Assembly: GCA_018402585.1 (NCBI GenBank)
Contig: JAGYIO010000003.1
Location: 140,386 to 204,385, forward strand
Reading direction: 5' to 3'
Length of the DNA stretch: 64,000 nt
Source: Chthoniobacterales bacterium
GTDB taxonomy: Bacteria; Verrucomicrobiota; Verrucomicrobiia; Chthoniobacterales; JACTMZ01
A program made the translations under genes and the position numbers. Of this stretch, positions 4,033 to 34,300 are shown piece by piece (position 1 is the stretch's first letter; the number at the start of each line of letters is the position of its first letter). The notes beneath the pieces were generated by a model. It ran no database searches and had not been told where the DNA came from. It saw nothing but the letters and a program-made list of their open reading frames with translations.

Positions 4033-4259
4033 CTTAGCCGTAACCATGCAAAACATTCTGCCACTTCTGGCACGGCCACAGAGGCGCGTCTGGGCGAGAG
4101 TTGACTAACTATTTGGTGAGCGAGTTGGCACGTGGCCAAGGGGGCACGGGCGTCCCGCCCGTCACGACCCGACAACACGGCCGGGACGGCCGTGCCCCCT
4201 GGACAGACCGAGCCAAGCCGCGCTTTTATTGCGTCTTCAACTGCATGGTTACGGCTTAG
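4033..4259 (+). mobile_element. 227-bp MITE-like non-coding element, copy 1
   Basis: Terminal inverted repeats are CCGTAACCATGCA (4038-4050) and TGCATGGTTACGG (4242-4254). CTTAG flanks the element on both sides. A ~23-bp GC hairpin lies inside. Copies of the same length sit at 26144-26370 and 42185-42411. Confidence 0.6.
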
Positions 4260-4344
4260 TCCCTGAACCCGCGCGTTGGCGGGTGTGTGCTGGGAGTATC
4301 CGGGTTTGCGAAGGCTATGAACTTTGGCAGGCCAGAGGTCAGAA

Positions 4345-4562
4345 GGCCACAGCCGAGTCTGAGAGACGGCCCATAGGCAAATGGAAGAGGATGACAGAAG
4401 ATGGTGTTCGCGCCGCTGACACGGCGCAAACACAGTCTCCGGACCGAAGCTTTGAGCGGGGCGCGTGTCAGCGCGCCCCGCTCTGTCCTCTGCTATCTTC
4501 TTCCATTTGACCGCTTCGCTCAGCTCTCCGAGCTGCCTGTCTCGTTGCCCTCGGCTGTGGCC
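4345..4562 (+). repeat. Long composite hairpin element X, related to 10009-10111
   Basis: The outer stem is GGCCACAGCCGAG (4345-4357) with CTCGGCTGTGGCC (4550-4562). The purine arm 4378-4400 pairs with the pyrimidine arm 4487-4509. The inner hairpins are 4404-4433 (loop CTGACA) and 4454-4483 (12-bp perfect stem, loop TGTCAG). Confidence 0.6.
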
Positions 4563-4666
4563 TGTTCTTCTTCGTTTTCAACAGAGTAACTCCCGCAAGT
4601 TAGTCGGGAGTCCCTGAACCCGCGCATTGGCGGGCGTGGTTGGGGAGTAACTGGGGCGGCAAAGCC

Positions 4667-4802
4667 CAGGGGGAACGGGCGTCTCGCCCGTTTTCCGAAA
4701 GACCACCCGGGCGGGACGCCCGCAACCCAAATCATTGGGGTGTGGCATCGGCATCCTGCCGATGGGTTTGGATCGTGACGGGCGGGACGCCCGTGCCCCC
4801 TG
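4667..4802. repeat. Inverted pair of the GGGG(C/A)ACGGGCGTC(C/T)CGCCCGT motif enclosing a CATCGGCATCCTGCCGATG hairpin
   Basis: 4667-4691 (cagggggaacgggcgtctcgcccgt) and 4778-4802 (acgggcgggacgcccgtgccccctg) are near reverse complements. The hairpin CATCGGC-atcct-GCCGATG lies at 4746-4764. The same two modules recur at 49126-49223. Confidence 0.6.
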
Positions 4803-5005
4803 TCCAAAGCAGTAATTGGCGGGTCCGCCATAACCCAAGTTACTCGGGAGCCAATGGCGCGTCGCTAACCACGGGTCTGGAGATCGGCAAAATGGGGGGT
4901 CTCAGCCTCGAAAGGGACCTGTGAGTTTAAGGTTGGGAAGTTGAAAACCGACGACTGTTCAGATCGGCCACTCCACCCTCACGACTTTCCACCACGATTT
5001 CCAAC

Positions 5006-28990: not shown

Positions 28991-29730
28991 GCACCCCTCT
29001 TCGCCTCTGCATCCACGGCGCCCAAGGCCGCATGGGCCAAGCCCTCATCCGCTGCGCGGCCGAAGATCCGGAACTTGAAGTGACCGCCACGGTCGACACG
29101 GACGATAATTTCTCCGCCGCGCTCACGGAGTGCGATGCGGTGATCGACTTCTCCGCCATCCAGATCACCAGTCAGGTGGCCAAAGCCTGCGCCGAGGCCG
29201 GCAAAGTCCTCGTCATCGGCACGACCGGACACGAACTCGCCGAGCGTGAGCTGATCAAGCAAGCCGCAGCCAAGATCCCGCTCGTCTTTTCCCCGAACTA
29301 CAGCGTCGGCGTGAACACCCTTTTCTGGCTCACCCGCAAAGCCGCCGAAATCCTTGGCTCCGACTTCGACCTTGAAGTGGTCGAAATGCATCACCGCCTG
29401 AAAAAAGATGCCCCCTCCGGCACCGCCCGCCACCTCGCCGAGATCCTCGCCGAAGTCCGCCAACTCGACTACGCCGAGTCCGCCCGCCACGGCCGCGCCG
29501 GCCTGGTCGGCGAACGCGCGAACGACGAAATCGGCGTCCACGCCATCCGCGGCGGCGACGTGGTCGGAGACCACACCGTGATCTACGCCGCCCCCGGCGA
29601 ACGCCTCGAACTCACCCACAAAGCCTCCAGCCGCGACACCTTCGCCCGCGGCGCCCTCCGCGCGGCCAAGTGGGCCAGCAAGCAACCGGCCGGTCTTTAT
29701 GACATGCAGGATGTGCTCGGCCTCAAGTAA
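28987..29730 (+). CDS. dapB: 4-hydroxy-tetrahydrodipicolinate reductase
   Basis: Motifs present: GAQGRMGQAL, VIGTTG, FSPNYSVGVN, EMHHRLKKDAPSGTA and IRGGDVVGDHTV. ATGA overlap with dapA. Confidence 0.93.
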   Translation: MSTPLRLCIHGAQGRMGQALIRCAAEDPELEVTATVDTDDNFSAALTECDAVIDFSAIQITSQVAKACAEAGKVLVIGTTGHELAERELIKQAAAKIPLVFSPNYSVGVNTLFWLTRKAAEILGSDFDLEVVEMHHRLKKDAPSGTARHLAEILAEVRQLDYAESARHGRAGLVGERANDEIGVHAIRGGDVVGDHTVIYAAPGERLELTHKASSRDTFARGALRAAKWASKQPAGLYDMQDVLGLK

Positions 29731-29751
29731 CCCGTAGCGTCGCCTTCCCCA

Positions 29752-29923
29752 GCGACAACCACTTCAGATCAGACTTGGTGGATCGCGATGTCCCACTCGC
29801 GATTTTCTTCACTTCACCTCGCGCCGGGGACGGCGCGATCCACCTTCCGCAACTACTCCTCCCGAACTTCCAAGCGCAGGAACTTCTGCGCTTCTCCCGG
29901 CAAGACCGGCACTGTCGCGCGGC
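29752..29923. repeat. ~171-bp direct repeat, copy A, containing a relic protein C-terminus
   Basis: It aligns by eye at roughly 80% with 31132-31302. The minus strand of 29853-29918 encodes ATVPVLPGEAQKFLRLEVREE*. The S8 protease C-terminus is ATAPVLPGERQKFLRLEVGEN*. Confidence 0.7.
29782..29810 (+). terminator. Candidate intrinsic terminator downstream of dapB
   Basis: ATCGCGA-tgtcccac-TCGCGAT is followed by TTTTCTTC. The same hairpin with a T-run occurs in repeat copy B at 31163-31188. Confidence 0.4.
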
Positions 29924-29936
29924 CGCAGATCGCGGA

Positions 29937-30926
29937 CTACCCTTTCTCCGGTTCTTTGCGTTTGAGAAAATCGAGGGCCGCGCGGAAACGCTCTTCGTTC
30001 TCCGGCGACGAAGCAGCCAAGGCTTCGTGCGCCTCGACCATGGTGCCTCGCTTGTATTCTTTGGTGGCGGCGAGAGCCAAGTTCTCCATTTCGTCCCGGG
30101 CCGGCGGAGCCGCTTCGAAGCCTTGGAAAGCCAGCACCCGGTCCAAGCCGTAGCGACTGAAAAGCGCTTCGACCTTGGCGTTGACCCGCGTGAAACCGAT
30201 GCGACCGCGCGGATCCTCACGCAGACGCAGGGCCAAACCGGTCAGGATGCCGAGGAAGGTCGAGTCCATCATCTCGCACCCCTGCAGATCGAAAGCAAAC
30301 GACCGGTGGCCGGCCTCGAACATCTGTTCGGTATGGGCGCGCAGGGTCGCACCGTTCTGAAAGGTGCCGTGACCGTCGACCCGCAGCCAAACCGTGCCAC
30401 GAGTGACCAGTGTCCGCGTTTCGGCGGCCCGCAGCGCAGGACGGAATGTGGCCAGCGCTTGCTGACGCAGGACTTCACGGTCGTATTCCTTCCTCGGCTC
30501 AACCCGGAGCACCGGCAAGTCCGCCTTGGCCAGTGCCATATCGAAAAACTCGGCATCCACATGGTGACGCGGTTCGCCACGGTCAAACTCAATCACGCCG
30601 ACGATTTGTCCGTTGTCCGGCGTGCAGACCACGAAGTCGGCATGCTCCAAGCGGAGGCGGGCCAGTGCGCCGTGACGCCAGGCCGCGAAGGCGGCAGGGG
30701 AAGGGCGGACCACGTCAGCCAGACTGACCTTGGCAAATATTTCAAACTCGGGAGAGAGTGCGCGCCGCGCCGTGGCCACAAAACGCTTCTCCTCCTCATC
30801 CAAAAGCGCAGCAGCCTTGCTGTAAGACACCGACTTTGTCCCGCGCCGCCGCCATCCACGCAGCCCCCAGATCAACCCTGCGGTGATGGCCGCGCCGAGC
30901 AGGAGACCTAAAGCAAAAAACGTCAC
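29937..30926 (-). CDS. Membrane-anchored DUF2726 (PD-(D/E)xK/NERD-like) plus STAS domain fusion protein
   Basis: There is an N-terminal TM (FFALGLLLGAAITAGLIWGL). The DUF2726-like pattern is LLDEEEKRFVATARRAL...FAKVSLADVV...ADFVVCTPDNGQIVGVIEFD...ADLPVLRV. The STAS-like part is FAFDLQGCEMMDSTFLGILTGLALRL...VNAKVEALFSRYGLDRVL. Confidence 0.7.
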   Translation of the reverse strand: MTFFALGLLLGAAITAGLIWGLRGWRRRGTKSVSYSKAAALLDEEEKRFVATARRALSPEFEIFAKVSLADVVRPSPAAFAAWRHGALARLRLEHADFVVCTPDNGQIVGVIEFDRGEPRHHVDAEFFDMALAKADLPVLRVEPRKEYDREVLRQQALATFRPALRAAETRTLVTRGTVWLRVDGHGTFQNGATLRAHTEQMFEAGHRSFAFDLQGCEMMDSTFLGILTGLALRLREDPRGRIGFTRVNAKVEALFSRYGLDRVLAFQGFEAAPPARDEMENLALAATKEYKRGTMVEAHEALAASSPENEERFRAALDFLKRKEPEKG

Positions 30927-31131
30927 AACAGTTTGCTAACTCCCCGTATAACCCCTTATCAAGGCCCGAATACGCCCCTGCGGCGGGAGTGCCTTTCCCC
31001 TTCCCTGCCTCTCCGCGCAGCAGACCTGCCCTCGGGCACCACCCCCGTAATCTCCGGGCCCCCCGGCGGCTCGCCTCGAACGCCCCGACAAAGCATCGAG
31101 CCGCGACACCTCCGCGCAAGACACCCTCCTC

Positions 31132-31302
31132 GGCAACAACCGTTTCAGATCAGACCTGATGGATCGCGATGTCCCGCTCGCGATTTTTCCACTTTACTCC
31201 CGCGGGGGACAGCATGATCCACCTTCAGCAACTAGTTTTCCCCAACTTCCAAACGCAGGAACTTTTGCCGCTCCCCAGGCAAGACCGGCGCAGTGGCGCG
31301 GC
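31132..31302. repeat. ~171-bp direct repeat, copy B (the 3' end of the S8 protease gene plus downstream sequence)
   Basis: See 29752-29923. This copy includes the last ~22 codons and the stop codon (31232-31234) of the 1872-aa gene. Confidence 0.7.
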
Positions 31303-34300
31303 GTATTTCATAGTCACCGTGATCGCTGACCAACTCATCGGTCACACCGTCGGCCGACCAATTGCTCGTGTTGAGATCATTCTTCCAGACTACACGTCCG
31401 CTCACGCCGTTGAGTGATTTGCTGCGACGATAATCCAGATGGAAGCTCGTTGCGGTCGGCGCACCAATGACCATGGCTCCCGCCGCATTGCCGCCCGGTT
31501 GCAGGCCAAAGAAATATTCCGCCAAATTCACCAGACCGTTGCCGTCCGGATCCGCACCCGGAGATGCGTCAGACAAGCCGGCCGACCAATCCCCGAAGCT
31601 GACTCCCTGCACGGTCAACGTCCCGGGGAAATAGAAAATCGAGTAATTCGCCGGATTGAACGCCCCGCCGGCGGCAGCTGATGGCGTGAGCGTGTAGACA
31701 CCCGCCGCATCATTGGCCGCCGTGCCGCCATTGGCGGCCAGAGTGACCGAACCAATCGTCTCCCCGTCGGCCAAACCCGAGGCGCTGAAGGCGGTCTGCC
31801 CGGGCCCAAGCGGTAATGACTCGCCGAACGGTTTACTTTGATCAAGAGCGGTGATGTTCAGCCCGCGCGGCCGCACTTCGCTTTCGGGCATGGCCATGAC
31901 CGCCGGAGCGGCTCCCGCCGTGGTACACGTGATGTCACCCGAGTAAAACCCGACTGGCATGCCTGCCGCCAAACGGATGAAAACCACGGTCGGCGCCAGT
32001 TCACCCGCCCCACCGAGTGCCGCAGTCGGCGCATAGCCCGTCGTGCCATCCTCGCTGAGCGACAACTCAAAGCCGGTGGGTGGGGTGATGGTGATGCTTT
32101 CTTGCAAATCACTGCCGGCCACGAGGAACGAGGTCTGCGTCAGCGAGGGAAGCCCATAGGTGGCAATCTGGACGGAGGGCTGGCCGGAAAGCGCAATTTC
32201 CGGAGCCGGTCCCGCGGCGGCATCGGTAATGAGCAGATTGTCGATGTTGGCGCGGCGGTTACTAGAACCGGAGCTACCCGCTCTGATACGCACGCGCGCT
32301 GGGCCAGAAATATTCACAGCGGCGGAGAAAGTGGCTACCTCGGCACCGGCCGTGAATCGTCCGGCTTCGGTCCATACCCCACCTGCATTGGTGCTGTATT
32401 CCACGATCCACGGGATCTGCGTGTCCGACCCATAGCGCCGATGCTGAAAACTGATAGTCCCGATACCTCCTAGTTTGTCGTTCAGCATGACCATCTCGGA
32501 GGTGCCATAGCCTCGCAGGCGGGCGGATCTCAGGCCGTTTTTGAATTCGGTCTGCTCCGTGCCGATCAGCACCTCCGTCATGCTCCACGTCAACCCGTTG
32601 AGCATATCGGTTCCAGCGGCATAACCAGCTTTGCTCCCATCCTCAAAATCGACGAGGTAGCTCGTCCCCCCGGATGCGTTAATCGTCAAATTCAGCACCG
32701 CTTGTCCACTGCCAGCGGCATTGGAAGCCGTGAGAGTGACCGCAAAGCCTCCCGTTTGCGCGGGCACGCCGGAGATCAATCCGGTCGCGGGCACAATGTT
32801 CAATCCCGATGGCAGCCCGGTGGCGGCAAAAGTGTTGGGGTTGTTGCTGGCCGTGATCTGGTAATTGAAGGACTGACCCACCACAGCAACTGCCGTCGAT
32901 GCGCTGTCAATGACGGGAGTTGCCGCCGAGCTGGCGGAATTGCGCGGCGCGGGCGGCCCGGCCGAAAAATCCGCACCGTTGTCTCCCGTGTCCATGGCTC
33001 CGCCTCCGGCACGGAAGATAGCAGTGGTCGCCGAAGGCGACGGAGCCGCCGCCGATCCTTCGTAAGCATTAGCCGCCCCGAAACCAACAAAGTCCTGCAG
33101 CCCGCTTTGTCCGACCGGCGAGGAACCCATGAAGAGCGCCGTGGTGTTGCGCAGGGCGACCTTGCCCTGCGTGGCACTCATCCTAATGGCACCAGTTAGG
33201 TCGGGTGTGGGCAACGCGGCACCCGTGGATCCGCCCGAGAGCCTGACGAGGAAATACCCACCGGGCGCGATCGTGCCGACCAGATCCACCTTCGTGCTCC
33301 AACTGGTTCCCGAAGCCGAGGAGTATTGCAGGCTCCAGCCCGCGAGATTGACGGCTGATCCGCTCCGGTTGTGCAGTTCGACATAGTCCGCATTGTAAAC
33401 CGCCCCGTTGTTGCCACCCGCGCCATAGATCTGGCTGATTAAAACCGGTGACTCCACGATCGTGAAACTCGTTGAACTGGTCGCCACACCGAGTGGAGTG
33501 ACGACACTTAGCGGACCGGAAGTGGTGCCCGCGGGCGCGACCGCGGTGATTTGCGTGGCGGAGTCCAAAGTGTAAGCAGTGGCATTCACACCGTTGAATC
33601 GCACGGCGGACACATTGGCGAAGTTGACTCCAGTAATGGTCACGCTCTCGCCCGCCGCCCCACTGGCGGGGCTGAACGCTGCAATCGATGGCGCACCATT
33701 CCCGACGAGCACGGCTACGGTCGACGGCACCGTGGTCGTCGAAAGATTGCCGTTGTCCCACGCCCGCGCGGCCAGCGCATAGGTCCCGGCCGCGGGCGGT
33801 GTCCACGTTGCGGTATAAGGCGAGACGCTGCCGGCGGCCACAATCTGTCCGTCGACGAGAAATTCCACGCGGTCGATGACCCGCGGCGATCCGTCCTCGA
33901 GTTCGCCAGAGGCGGTGGCGGTGGCGGACAAAGTCAGCGGCTGCCCGGAGGCGACCACGGTGCCGCCTGTTGGCGTATTGAGCGTGACCACAGGCGGTTG
34001 GCCGCCGTCGCCACAGCAACTCGACTGCACCGTGGTTATATCCAGCCGCCACCCGCCGGAGATCGAGCCAGCGTCTTGGGCGGCACGATCCACGACATAG
34101 AGCGCCCAGTTTCCGTTGGCTGAACCACCGTTGAAGGGGGAAAGAGCCGCGCCGTAGGGCACTGCAGGGGCCGGAGACGGCAAACTGCTGGACACACCTG
34201 TGGGCCGGAAAATGCCCGAAGTGATCGACGAACCGACAGACGCTGTCGCTTCGTCATCGAAGGTGATGGTGGCATTGACCGCATCCGTTCCTCCGCCAAC

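Follow-up and report, generated by a model that had tools for sequence, protein, structure and literature searches.

Direct repeats of a convergent dapB/protease junction flank a DUF2726-STAS gene in a Chthoniobacterales genome: a possible stepwise rearrangement scar

We analysed a 64-kb stretch (the window; positions below are numbered from its first nucleotide) of contig JAGYIO010000003.1 from a Chthoniobacterales bacterium, a soil/freshwater verrucomicrobium. Near its middle, a gene encoding a DUF2726-STAS protein lies between dapB and a large S8 protease gene, and is flanked by direct repeats. We found that the repeated unit is the whole convergent dapB/protease junction, comprising the dapB 3' end, a hairpin-rich spacer and the protease 3' end. 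We favour the view, at a probability of roughly 45%, that the locus is a rearrangement scar that arose in steps, first through illegitimate and later through homologous recombination, with no dedicated mobile machinery. The event is of an ordinary kind, unusually well documented by intermediates, and involves no new system or mechanism; as such, the locus provides a well-resolved natural example of bacterial gene-order change without mobile elements. The 5' to 3' gene order is dapF, dapA and dapB on the forward strand, followed by the DUF2726-STAS, S8 protease and malate synthase genes, all on the reverse strand. Relatives are Chthoniobacterales loci labelled L001-L099, of which L001 and L089-L093 are short metagenome contigs.

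The original prediction described directly oriented repeats of ~80% identity and ~171 bp around the DUF2726-STAS gene. Their orientation and identity were borne out. In a blastn search against the whole window, positions 29743-29923 (within copy A, on the left) matched 31124-31302 (within copy B, on the right) as a direct repeat with 81.8% identity over 181 nt (E 4.6e-44). A gapped local alignment of the same segments yielded ~82-83% identity with three 1-nt gaps, and a repeat search returned the direct pairs 29818-29923/31197-31302 (81%) and 29743-29806/31124-31187 (86%). Although the ~171-bp block is real, the repeat continues to the left into dapB: a second collinear block aligns 29564-29662, within the dapB coding sequence, with 31032-31132 (76% identity over 101 nt, E 4e-13). 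Since this block places the dapB 3' end in copy B, the repeated unit is the complete convergent junction, and not the protease 3' region that had been named as the target. Copy A of the full unit spans ~360 nt, and copy B ~271 nt. Roughly 80 nt of copy A (29663-29742) are missing from copy B, and the endpoints of this gap share a GCC(C/T)TCC...CG microhomology that could be read directly. The last ~55 dapB codons (from 29564) make up the left part of copy A, while the right end of copy B consists of the last 23 codons of the 1872-amino acid (aa) protease open reading frame (ORF) together with its stop (31232-31302), confirming that copy B is the true protease 3' end with its downstream sequence. 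Thus, the left copy combines an intact dapB with a stranded protease tail, and the right copy an intact protease gene with a stranded dapB tail. No third copy was present in the 64 kb searched by blastn. Chance similarity or an assembly artefact is hardly credible as an explanation of this structure: short chance matches are common in this G+C-rich genome (two-copy repeat families D4-D13), but the two collinear blocks reach E-values of 5e-44 and 4e-13, and the same structure is present in independent assemblies from other samples (L089 and L090).

Between the two gene ends, copy A carries, in order, a small hairpin, an ATCGCGA...TCGCGAT stem with a T-run, and a second stem, TCGCGCC...GGCGCGA. 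This module is 83% identical to that of copy B and 80% identical to the intergenic region of L093, a relative in which the junction is empty; the copy B module is 94% identical to that of L092. As originally described, the ATCGCGA/TCGCGAT stem is followed by a T-run, which we find in both copies, and it is predicted to fold as a hairpin. A scan for consensus promoters and terminators did not flag the intergenic hairpins, and their folding z-scores were ~-1.5 to -1.9; hence they are regarded as putative terminators only. The longest run identical between copies A and B is 16 nt (TGGATCGCGATGTCCC), and it lies inside a hairpin, away from the repeat boundaries. The features of the locus are summarized in Table 1.

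Table 1. Coordinates of features at the dapB/DUF2726-STAS/protease locus
Feature	Position	Strand	Basis
dapB, intact, 247 aa	28987..29730	+	Pfam DapB_N and DapB_C
Portion of copy A within dapB; functional counterpart of the copy B fossil	29564..29662	+	blastn against 31032-31132
Last 23 dapB codons, stop and left arm of the small hairpin; copy A only	29663..29742	+	Alignments
Intergenic hairpin module, copy A	29743..29852	.	Inverted repeat and predicted fold
Stranded protease C-terminal fragment without gene body (…ATVPVLPGEAQKFLRLEVREE, then stop)	29853..29923	-	Translation
13-nt spacer separating copy A from the DUF2726-STAS stop	29924..29936	-	Alignment of orthologue downstream regions
DUF2726-STAS, 329 aa, N-terminal hydrophobic segment	29937..30926	-	Pfam DUF2726 7e-17, STAS_2 1.7e-7
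DUF2726-STAS upstream region, carried along	30927..31031	-	Alignment with L091, L002 and L006 upstream regions at the ancestral locus
dapB fossil within copy B (decayed 3' end)	31032..31132	+	blastn against 29564-29662
Intergenic hairpin module, copy B	31124..31231	.	Repeat search, alignments and fold
Recombination tract: protease 3' end and copy B intergenic region	31126..31880	-	Sliding-window identity to L092
S8 protease, 1872 aa	31232-36850	-	Pfam Peptidase_S8, P_proprotein, Big_7, TIG, LTD, He_PIG

The small hairpin just past the dapB stop (GTCGCC-TTCCCC-AGCGAC; window 29737-29757 and 31124-31135; L092:2990-3002) is an edge common to three independent events, namely the 80-nt deletion in copy B, a larger deletion in L001 and the insertion of a repeat element in L092. 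It may represent a local breakage hotspot.

We compared the two stranded gene fragments with their functional counterparts. Translation of copy A gave ...GRATVPVLPGEAQKFLRLEVREE followed by a stop, with nothing upstream, and 13 nt separate its final aligned base (29923) from the stop codon of DUF2726-STAS (29937-29939), in agreement with the original prediction that copy A has no gene body. In contrast, the accompanying view that copy A is a decayed copy did not hold. Its 71-nt tail matches the real protease tail of L093 at 65 of 71 positions and the window's own tail at 57 of 71, and it retains the conserved amino acid core ATxPVLPGExQKFLRLEV. Codon differences between copies A and B comprise 8 synonymous and 5 replacement changes, compared to 9 and 4, respectively, between copy B and the functional L093 tail; the A versus B pattern is thus the same as that between functional tails of different lineages. 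Relative to L089 and L090, copy A displays 1 synonymous and 3 replacement changes, all 3 of which are non-conservative. Rather than being held by selection as part of a real gene, copy A has drifted neutrally since the split from L089 and L090.

The dapB fossil in copy B is about equally similar (72-79%, with indels) to the dapB tails of L009, L094, L001 and L010, and 92% identical to the corresponding fossil in L089, while its functional counterpart in copy A (29564-29662) shares 95-98% identity with the L094, L093 and L001 dapB tails. Because it is only 75-77% identical to every functional dapB tail, with indels, the fossil appears to be old. A foreign donor for the fossil was considered and rejected, as it is about equidistant from the nearest dapB tails tested. 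The intergenic modules of copies A and B are 83% identical, whereas the orthologous copy B and L001 modules are only ~64% identical. Taken together, the L093-like tail, the synonymous-leaning differences, the decayed state of the dapB fossil and the similarity of the A and B modules suggest that the protease gene containing copy A was still functional in the fairly recent past, and that the dapB fossil is the older of the two. By these comparisons, copy A looks like a recently stranded functional allele and not an old, decayed copy of the resident tail.

The TAG stop of the DUF2726-STAS gene is in frame with the stranded protease tail, with 27 codons (SAICGRATVPVLPGEAQKFLRLEVREE) up to the next TAG (29853-29939, reverse strand). 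This arrangement is probably a coincidence. Read-through of the TAG into the 27-codon tail was rejected, as L089 and L090 carry non-conservative changes there and L001 lacks the tail.

Evidence for exchange between strains came from the protease 3' end. Identity between the window and L092 was 92-100% per 100-nt window across ~750 nt (31126-31880), and only 61-82% over ~2.2 kb of the protease gene beyond ~31880. This abrupt change at ~31880 demonstrates between-strain homologous recombination at the protease 3' end, and provides direct evidence that such recombination keeps rewriting the scar. Since the resident protease 3' end is itself a recombinant tract, the 82% identity of copies A and B reflects two alleles, and not elapsed time. 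It follows that an apparent decayed pseudogene fragment can be a recently stranded foreign allele, and that repeat identity of this kind does not serve as a clock. The sharp breakpoint sits inside a fast-evolving surface protease.

Relatives preserve several states of the junction. L089 and L090 share the structure of the window (DUF2726-STAS 96% and 95% identical at the aa level, respectively); both carry copy A, and the dapB fossil is shown in L089. L001 has the protease, DUF2726-STAS (91% aa identity) and dapB in the same order as the window, along with a shorter dapB fossil beside the protease-side intergenic module (local score 37, compared to 20.8±2.6 for shuffles), but its 111-nt spacer between DUF2726-STAS and dapB contains no trace of copy A. 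Because L001 possesses the gene and the dapB fossil without copy A, more than one event is indicated. In L093 and L094/L095 the site is empty, the protease tail being directly convergent on dapB (dapB 92% aa identity), and in L093 the same hairpin module separates the two genes. Nucleotide distances over dapA and dapB were 0.072 for window-L094, 0.084 for window-L001 and 0.077 for L001-L094, compared to ~0.14 for the outgroup L009, such that the window, L001 and L094 form a near trichotomy. Lineages at similar distances thus include both occupied and empty sites, and the single gene between the repeats occupies a lineage-specific position, which supports part of the original prediction. Together with the ancestral neighbourhood described below, these contigs retain the empty junction, the one-fossil site and the two-repeat site.

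The junction is itself of limited distribution. The window dapB is 88-92% identical (aa) to dapB of L009, L094 and L001, and its closest counterparts in the species-representative genome set are from Chthoniobacterales metagenome-assembled genomes (MAGs; 88%, 83% and 82% aa identity). In L009-L011, a Peripla_BP_2 gene follows dapB, and there is no protease. A GTDB scan with dapB returned 80 loci, none of which had the protease or DUF2726-STAS downstream of dapB, indicating that the dapB/protease junction is lineage-specific. The C-terminal 600 aa of the protease yielded no relatives when scanned against metagenome contigs. Directly 3' of dapB is a synteny breakpoint (window 29731 onwards; L009:10742-11579; L010:5084 onwards): the mutS-dapF-dapA-dapB block is conserved, and the next gene varies among close lineages, being Peripla_BP_2, the protease or DUF2726-STAS. 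In the empty-site MAG GCA_945897015.1 (L094:425-2041), the dapB-adjacent protease homologue is called as a 467-aa MBG-domain ORF, and similarity extends upstream of its start; this may be a fragmented or frameshifted gene or an assembly problem.

We also asked where DUF2726-STAS resides in more distant relatives. Its 42 homologues are 60-96% identical and ~326-337 aa long, and those with a named source are from Verrucomicrobiota or Chthoniobacterales. Genomic context was examined for 9 of the 42, and only two types of context were observed: a HerA-like/LssY_C context and, in the window's own lineage, the dapB/protease context. DUF2726-STAS behaves as a vertically inherited gene. In distant orthologues (L002-L008, L096-L099), it is divergent from a 789-aa HerA-like ATPase gene, with LssY_C and a secretin cluster downstream; in L091, only the start of the HerA-like gene is visible upstream. 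The multi-domain S8 protease is also present in L097, where its 3' end faces that of the HerA-like gene; DUF2726-STAS lies 2.5 kb from the protease and in its orientation. In L002 the protease orthologue is ~8 kb from DUF2726-STAS. The L097 protease tail (ATAPVLPGERQKFLRLEVQQQ, followed by a stop) is identical in aa sequence to that of the window (ATAPVLPGERQKFLRLEV). As DUF2726-STAS of L097 is already near the protease and in the same orientation, the gene may never have jumped in from elsewhere. Within this neighbourhood, which is conserved in Chthoniobacterales (L097:1-12557; L002, L006, L096-L099), the HerA-like ATPase matches the PADLOC mad8 (1e-16) and HerA models, and the secretin gene is followed by that of a T2SSE-type ATPase. 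In the lineage of the window, DUF2726-STAS is without its HerA-like and LssY_C partners within 27-29 kb.

The segment between the repeats (29924-31031, 1108 nt) contains one ORF with 105 nt upstream and 13 nt downstream. Its upstream region (30927-31031) bears a conserved ATTCGG..CTTGATA...TAGCAA motif and extends approximately to the position of the start codon of the ancestral, divergent HerA-like gene. In L002 and L006, a CCGCGCCC...GGGCGCGG hairpin occupies the position of the 13-nt downstream spacer, which is probably, judging from this alignment, the left half of the ancestral DUF2726-STAS terminator hairpin. The window therefore kept the DUF2726-STAS promoter motif and spacer up to about the HerA-like start codon, and about half of the ancestral terminator hairpin. 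The junction between copy A and the DUF2726-STAS gene lies in a CGCG-rich stretch similar to the terminator arm of the ancestral DUF2726-STAS gene as well as to the protease tail; at the junction on the upstream side (~31031), the sequence is too decayed to read.

Based on these results, our favoured explanation is a sequence of steps, the order and enzymology of which we infer. In an older step common to L001, DUF2726-STAS, with its promoter and half-terminator, would have been placed or left between the protease and dapB, and ~100 nt or more of the dapB 3' end (from 29564) would have been left in duplicate on the protease side. This duplicate would then have decayed to 76% identity and lost 80 nt by microhomology deletion. 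Recombination between the dapB repeats could have deleted DUF2726-STAS to produce the empty junction; alternatively, the empty junction may be ancestral. In a younger step, confined to the window, L089 and L090, an L093-like empty-junction allele may have replaced the stretch just downstream of dapB, bringing with it the intergenic module and 71 nt of a then-functional protease tail, i.e., copy A. Homology within dapB would have anchored this exchange at one end, with an illegitimate join in the CGCG-rich microhomology 13 nt past the DUF2726-STAS stop at the other. Separately, the resident protease 3' end and intergenic region would have been swapped with an L092-like lineage by homologous recombination. 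The present role of the arrangement would go no further than supplying all three genes with undamaged 3' ends and a hairpin module apiece. Recombination between the direct repeats would be able to delete DUF2726-STAS, which could account for the empty sites in similarly distant relatives.

Several points weigh against this explanation. The order of events is drawn from small samples, each segment offering 71-110 nt. Substitution counts of 7/72 and ~22/93 differ with only modest significance, and the excess of synonymous changes does not reach significance by itself. The similarity of A and B could also stem from constraint on the hairpins or from gene conversion between the two copies. Any single one of the short metagenome contigs (L001, L089-L093) could be an assembly chimera. 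The HerA/LssY locus of window-type or empty-type genomes does not appear on any contig, such that the empty sites may be ancestral or pop-outs, and the gene may have been copied or may never have moved. Finally, the older step provides no mechanism by which a dapB fragment replaced the HerA-like gene.

The original prediction had proposed insertion or duplication-mediated capture. The empty sites lend this support, but the L097 neighbours and the absence of copy A from L001 do not, and more than one event is indicated. In its most explicit form, a single duplicative insertion would have placed a 1.1-kb piece, made up of DUF2726-STAS with its promoter and half its terminator, into an empty dapB/protease junction and duplicated the ~360-nt target; L001 would later have lost copy A, and recombination or gene conversion would then have refreshed copy A and replaced copy B. 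Possible routes include MMBIR-like template switching (microhomology-mediated break-induced replication), end-joining capture at a staggered break and integration of a circularised fragment by a Campbell-type single crossover. Such an insertion predicts precisely the symmetric structure observed, in that the junction is contiguous in each copy and both flanking genes are intact, and the insert is bounded where the ancestral transcription unit begins and ends; moreover, insertion-site duplications are documented for replicative mechanisms (PMC5120786). However, the extra events are needed to explain the L001 spacer, and fossils of the same age would be expected, whereas the dapB fossil is 75-77% identical to functional tails and present in L001, while the protease tail is 92% identical to a functional allele and absent from L001, although these samples are small and not decisive. 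Copies A and B are also more similar to each other than is copy B to the orthologous L001 module, and it would have to be a coincidence that the captured gene was the ancestral near neighbour of the protease, in the same orientation (L097). We therefore regard a single insertion, the main rival, as possible but doubtful.

In Campbell-type single crossover and homology-facilitated illegitimate recombination, a homologous segment gives rise to direct repeats that flank the incoming DNA. The locus resembles the products of these processes in having a homology anchor in dapB, another end apparently closed at microhomology and a donor allele that differs from the resident one. It is unlike them in that neither a circular intermediate nor transformation is observable, and the donor is suggested solely by similarity to L093. 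Template switching by fork stalling and template switching (FoSTeS) or MMBIR generates insertions with insertion-site duplication in humans (PMC5120786; see also PMC8421209). Shared with it are the duplication-insertion-duplication structure and the origin of the inserted piece from the same genome, and perhaps also short GC-rich microhomology at the junctions; in contrast, those events are mainly from human and yeast and of kb-Mb scale, and here the junctions appear to be of different age.

The ancestral neighbourhood raises another alternative, a large tandem duplication followed by loss. A segment spanning 30 kb or more, with the DUF2726-STAS terminator at one end and the protease tail at the other, would have been duplicated, joining a protease tail to DUF2726-STAS; most of one copy would then have been lost by deletion from the HerA-like start to dapB at ~29564, with the repeats as remnants. 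Both junctions would then derive from simple, frequent types of event, DUF2726-STAS would stay in the protease orientation as in L097, and the position of each fossil would be explained. Despite these strengths we consider it unlikely: it predicts a protease-tail fossil at least as old as the dapB fossil, the opposite of what was seen, and it requires an unobserved ancestor in which the entire dap block lay to the right of both the HerA-like gene and DUF2726-STAS. In addition, no HerA-like gene, LssY_C gene or second DUF2726-STAS gene was found in the 64-kb window (29 kb to the left and 27 kb to the right of the locus). An inversion with staggered breaks, and a tandem duplication including DUF2726-STAS, were worked through on paper and rejected, as neither reproduced the observed order of the fossils.

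The stepwise scar that we favour involves no mobile machinery, and we examined the insert for signs of any. Its G+C content and composition match the surroundings, with no sign of foreign origin. The ORF list and Pfam revealed no integrase, excisionase, transposase or recombinase domain in the insert, there are no terminal inverted repeats at 29924 or 31031, and PADLOC gave no match to DUF2726-STAS. Like the target-site duplications of transposons and insertion sequences, the repeats flank the insert as direct copies of its target, but they are ~180-360 nt long compared to 2-14 bp, and both terminal inverted repeats and a transposase are lacking; the original prediction rightly noted that they far exceed the duplications left by transposases, and the insert is too small to accommodate a recombinase gene. 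RNA genes were excluded as integration targets, as the window contains no tRNA or tmRNA gene, and an Rfam scan of the whole window at gathering thresholds gave no match.

A site-specific integrative element carrying a replacement 3' end, of the e14/icd or tRNA-island type, would leave the same outward signature, namely an insert between direct repeats, one of which is a 3' piece of a gene moved from its place. Among textbook cases, the cryptic prophage e14 of E. coli K-12 comes closest: a live gene (icd) and a stranded C-terminal fragment (icdC) flank the insert, substitutions of the kind seen between alleles distinguish the two copies, and a chimeric intact gene is recreated when recombination removes the insert (PMC13626634). 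The two loci are alike in that the direct repeats derive from the 3' end of a host gene, with one copy completing the gene and the other being a stranded pseudogene. Unlike icd/e14, the insert here is one ordinary chromosomal gene with no integrase or element gene, and the repeat spans the ends of two convergent genes, with a fossil at both ends. DUF2726 belongs to the PD-(D/E)XK nuclease superfamily, is without known function, and is flanked by mobile elements in Fusobacteria (PMC3424549), which is consistent with an element. In contrast, the 1108-nt insert is filled by one membrane-anchored ORF and its promoter, and the two contexts found among the homologues examined, vertical inheritance and the negative PADLOC result point away from one. 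An integrative element is accordingly very improbable.

An equally speculative idea is that DUF2726-STAS, its promoter and its half-terminator form a self-contained relocatable cassette, in which DUF2726 would cut terminator hairpins between convergent genes and repair would leave target duplications of hundreds of nt. If true, this would represent a new recombinase-free route for gene movement that spares the neighbours. Nothing in these data shows a DNA-acting role for DUF2726-STAS, and we view the idea as highly unlikely.

The flank of L092 past its intergenic module (L092:3002-3259) was considered as a third arrangement of the junction and rejected: it is a copy of a hairpin-rich repeat also found at window 4596-4840, and L092 is therefore uninformative with respect to occupancy. 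In the window, this repeated element of ~230-250 nt lies in a 1.2-kb non-coding stretch (4105-4840) and starts with GTCCCTGAACCCGCG. One full and one partial copy are present, with cores at 4259-4273 and 4610-4624 and hairpin arms at 4139-4200 and 4667-4802, and the L092 copy, directly after the protease intergenic module, is ~75% identical. The element at ~4.6 kb, which has no Rfam family, could be an element resembling miniature inverted-repeat transposable elements or an undescribed structured RNA.

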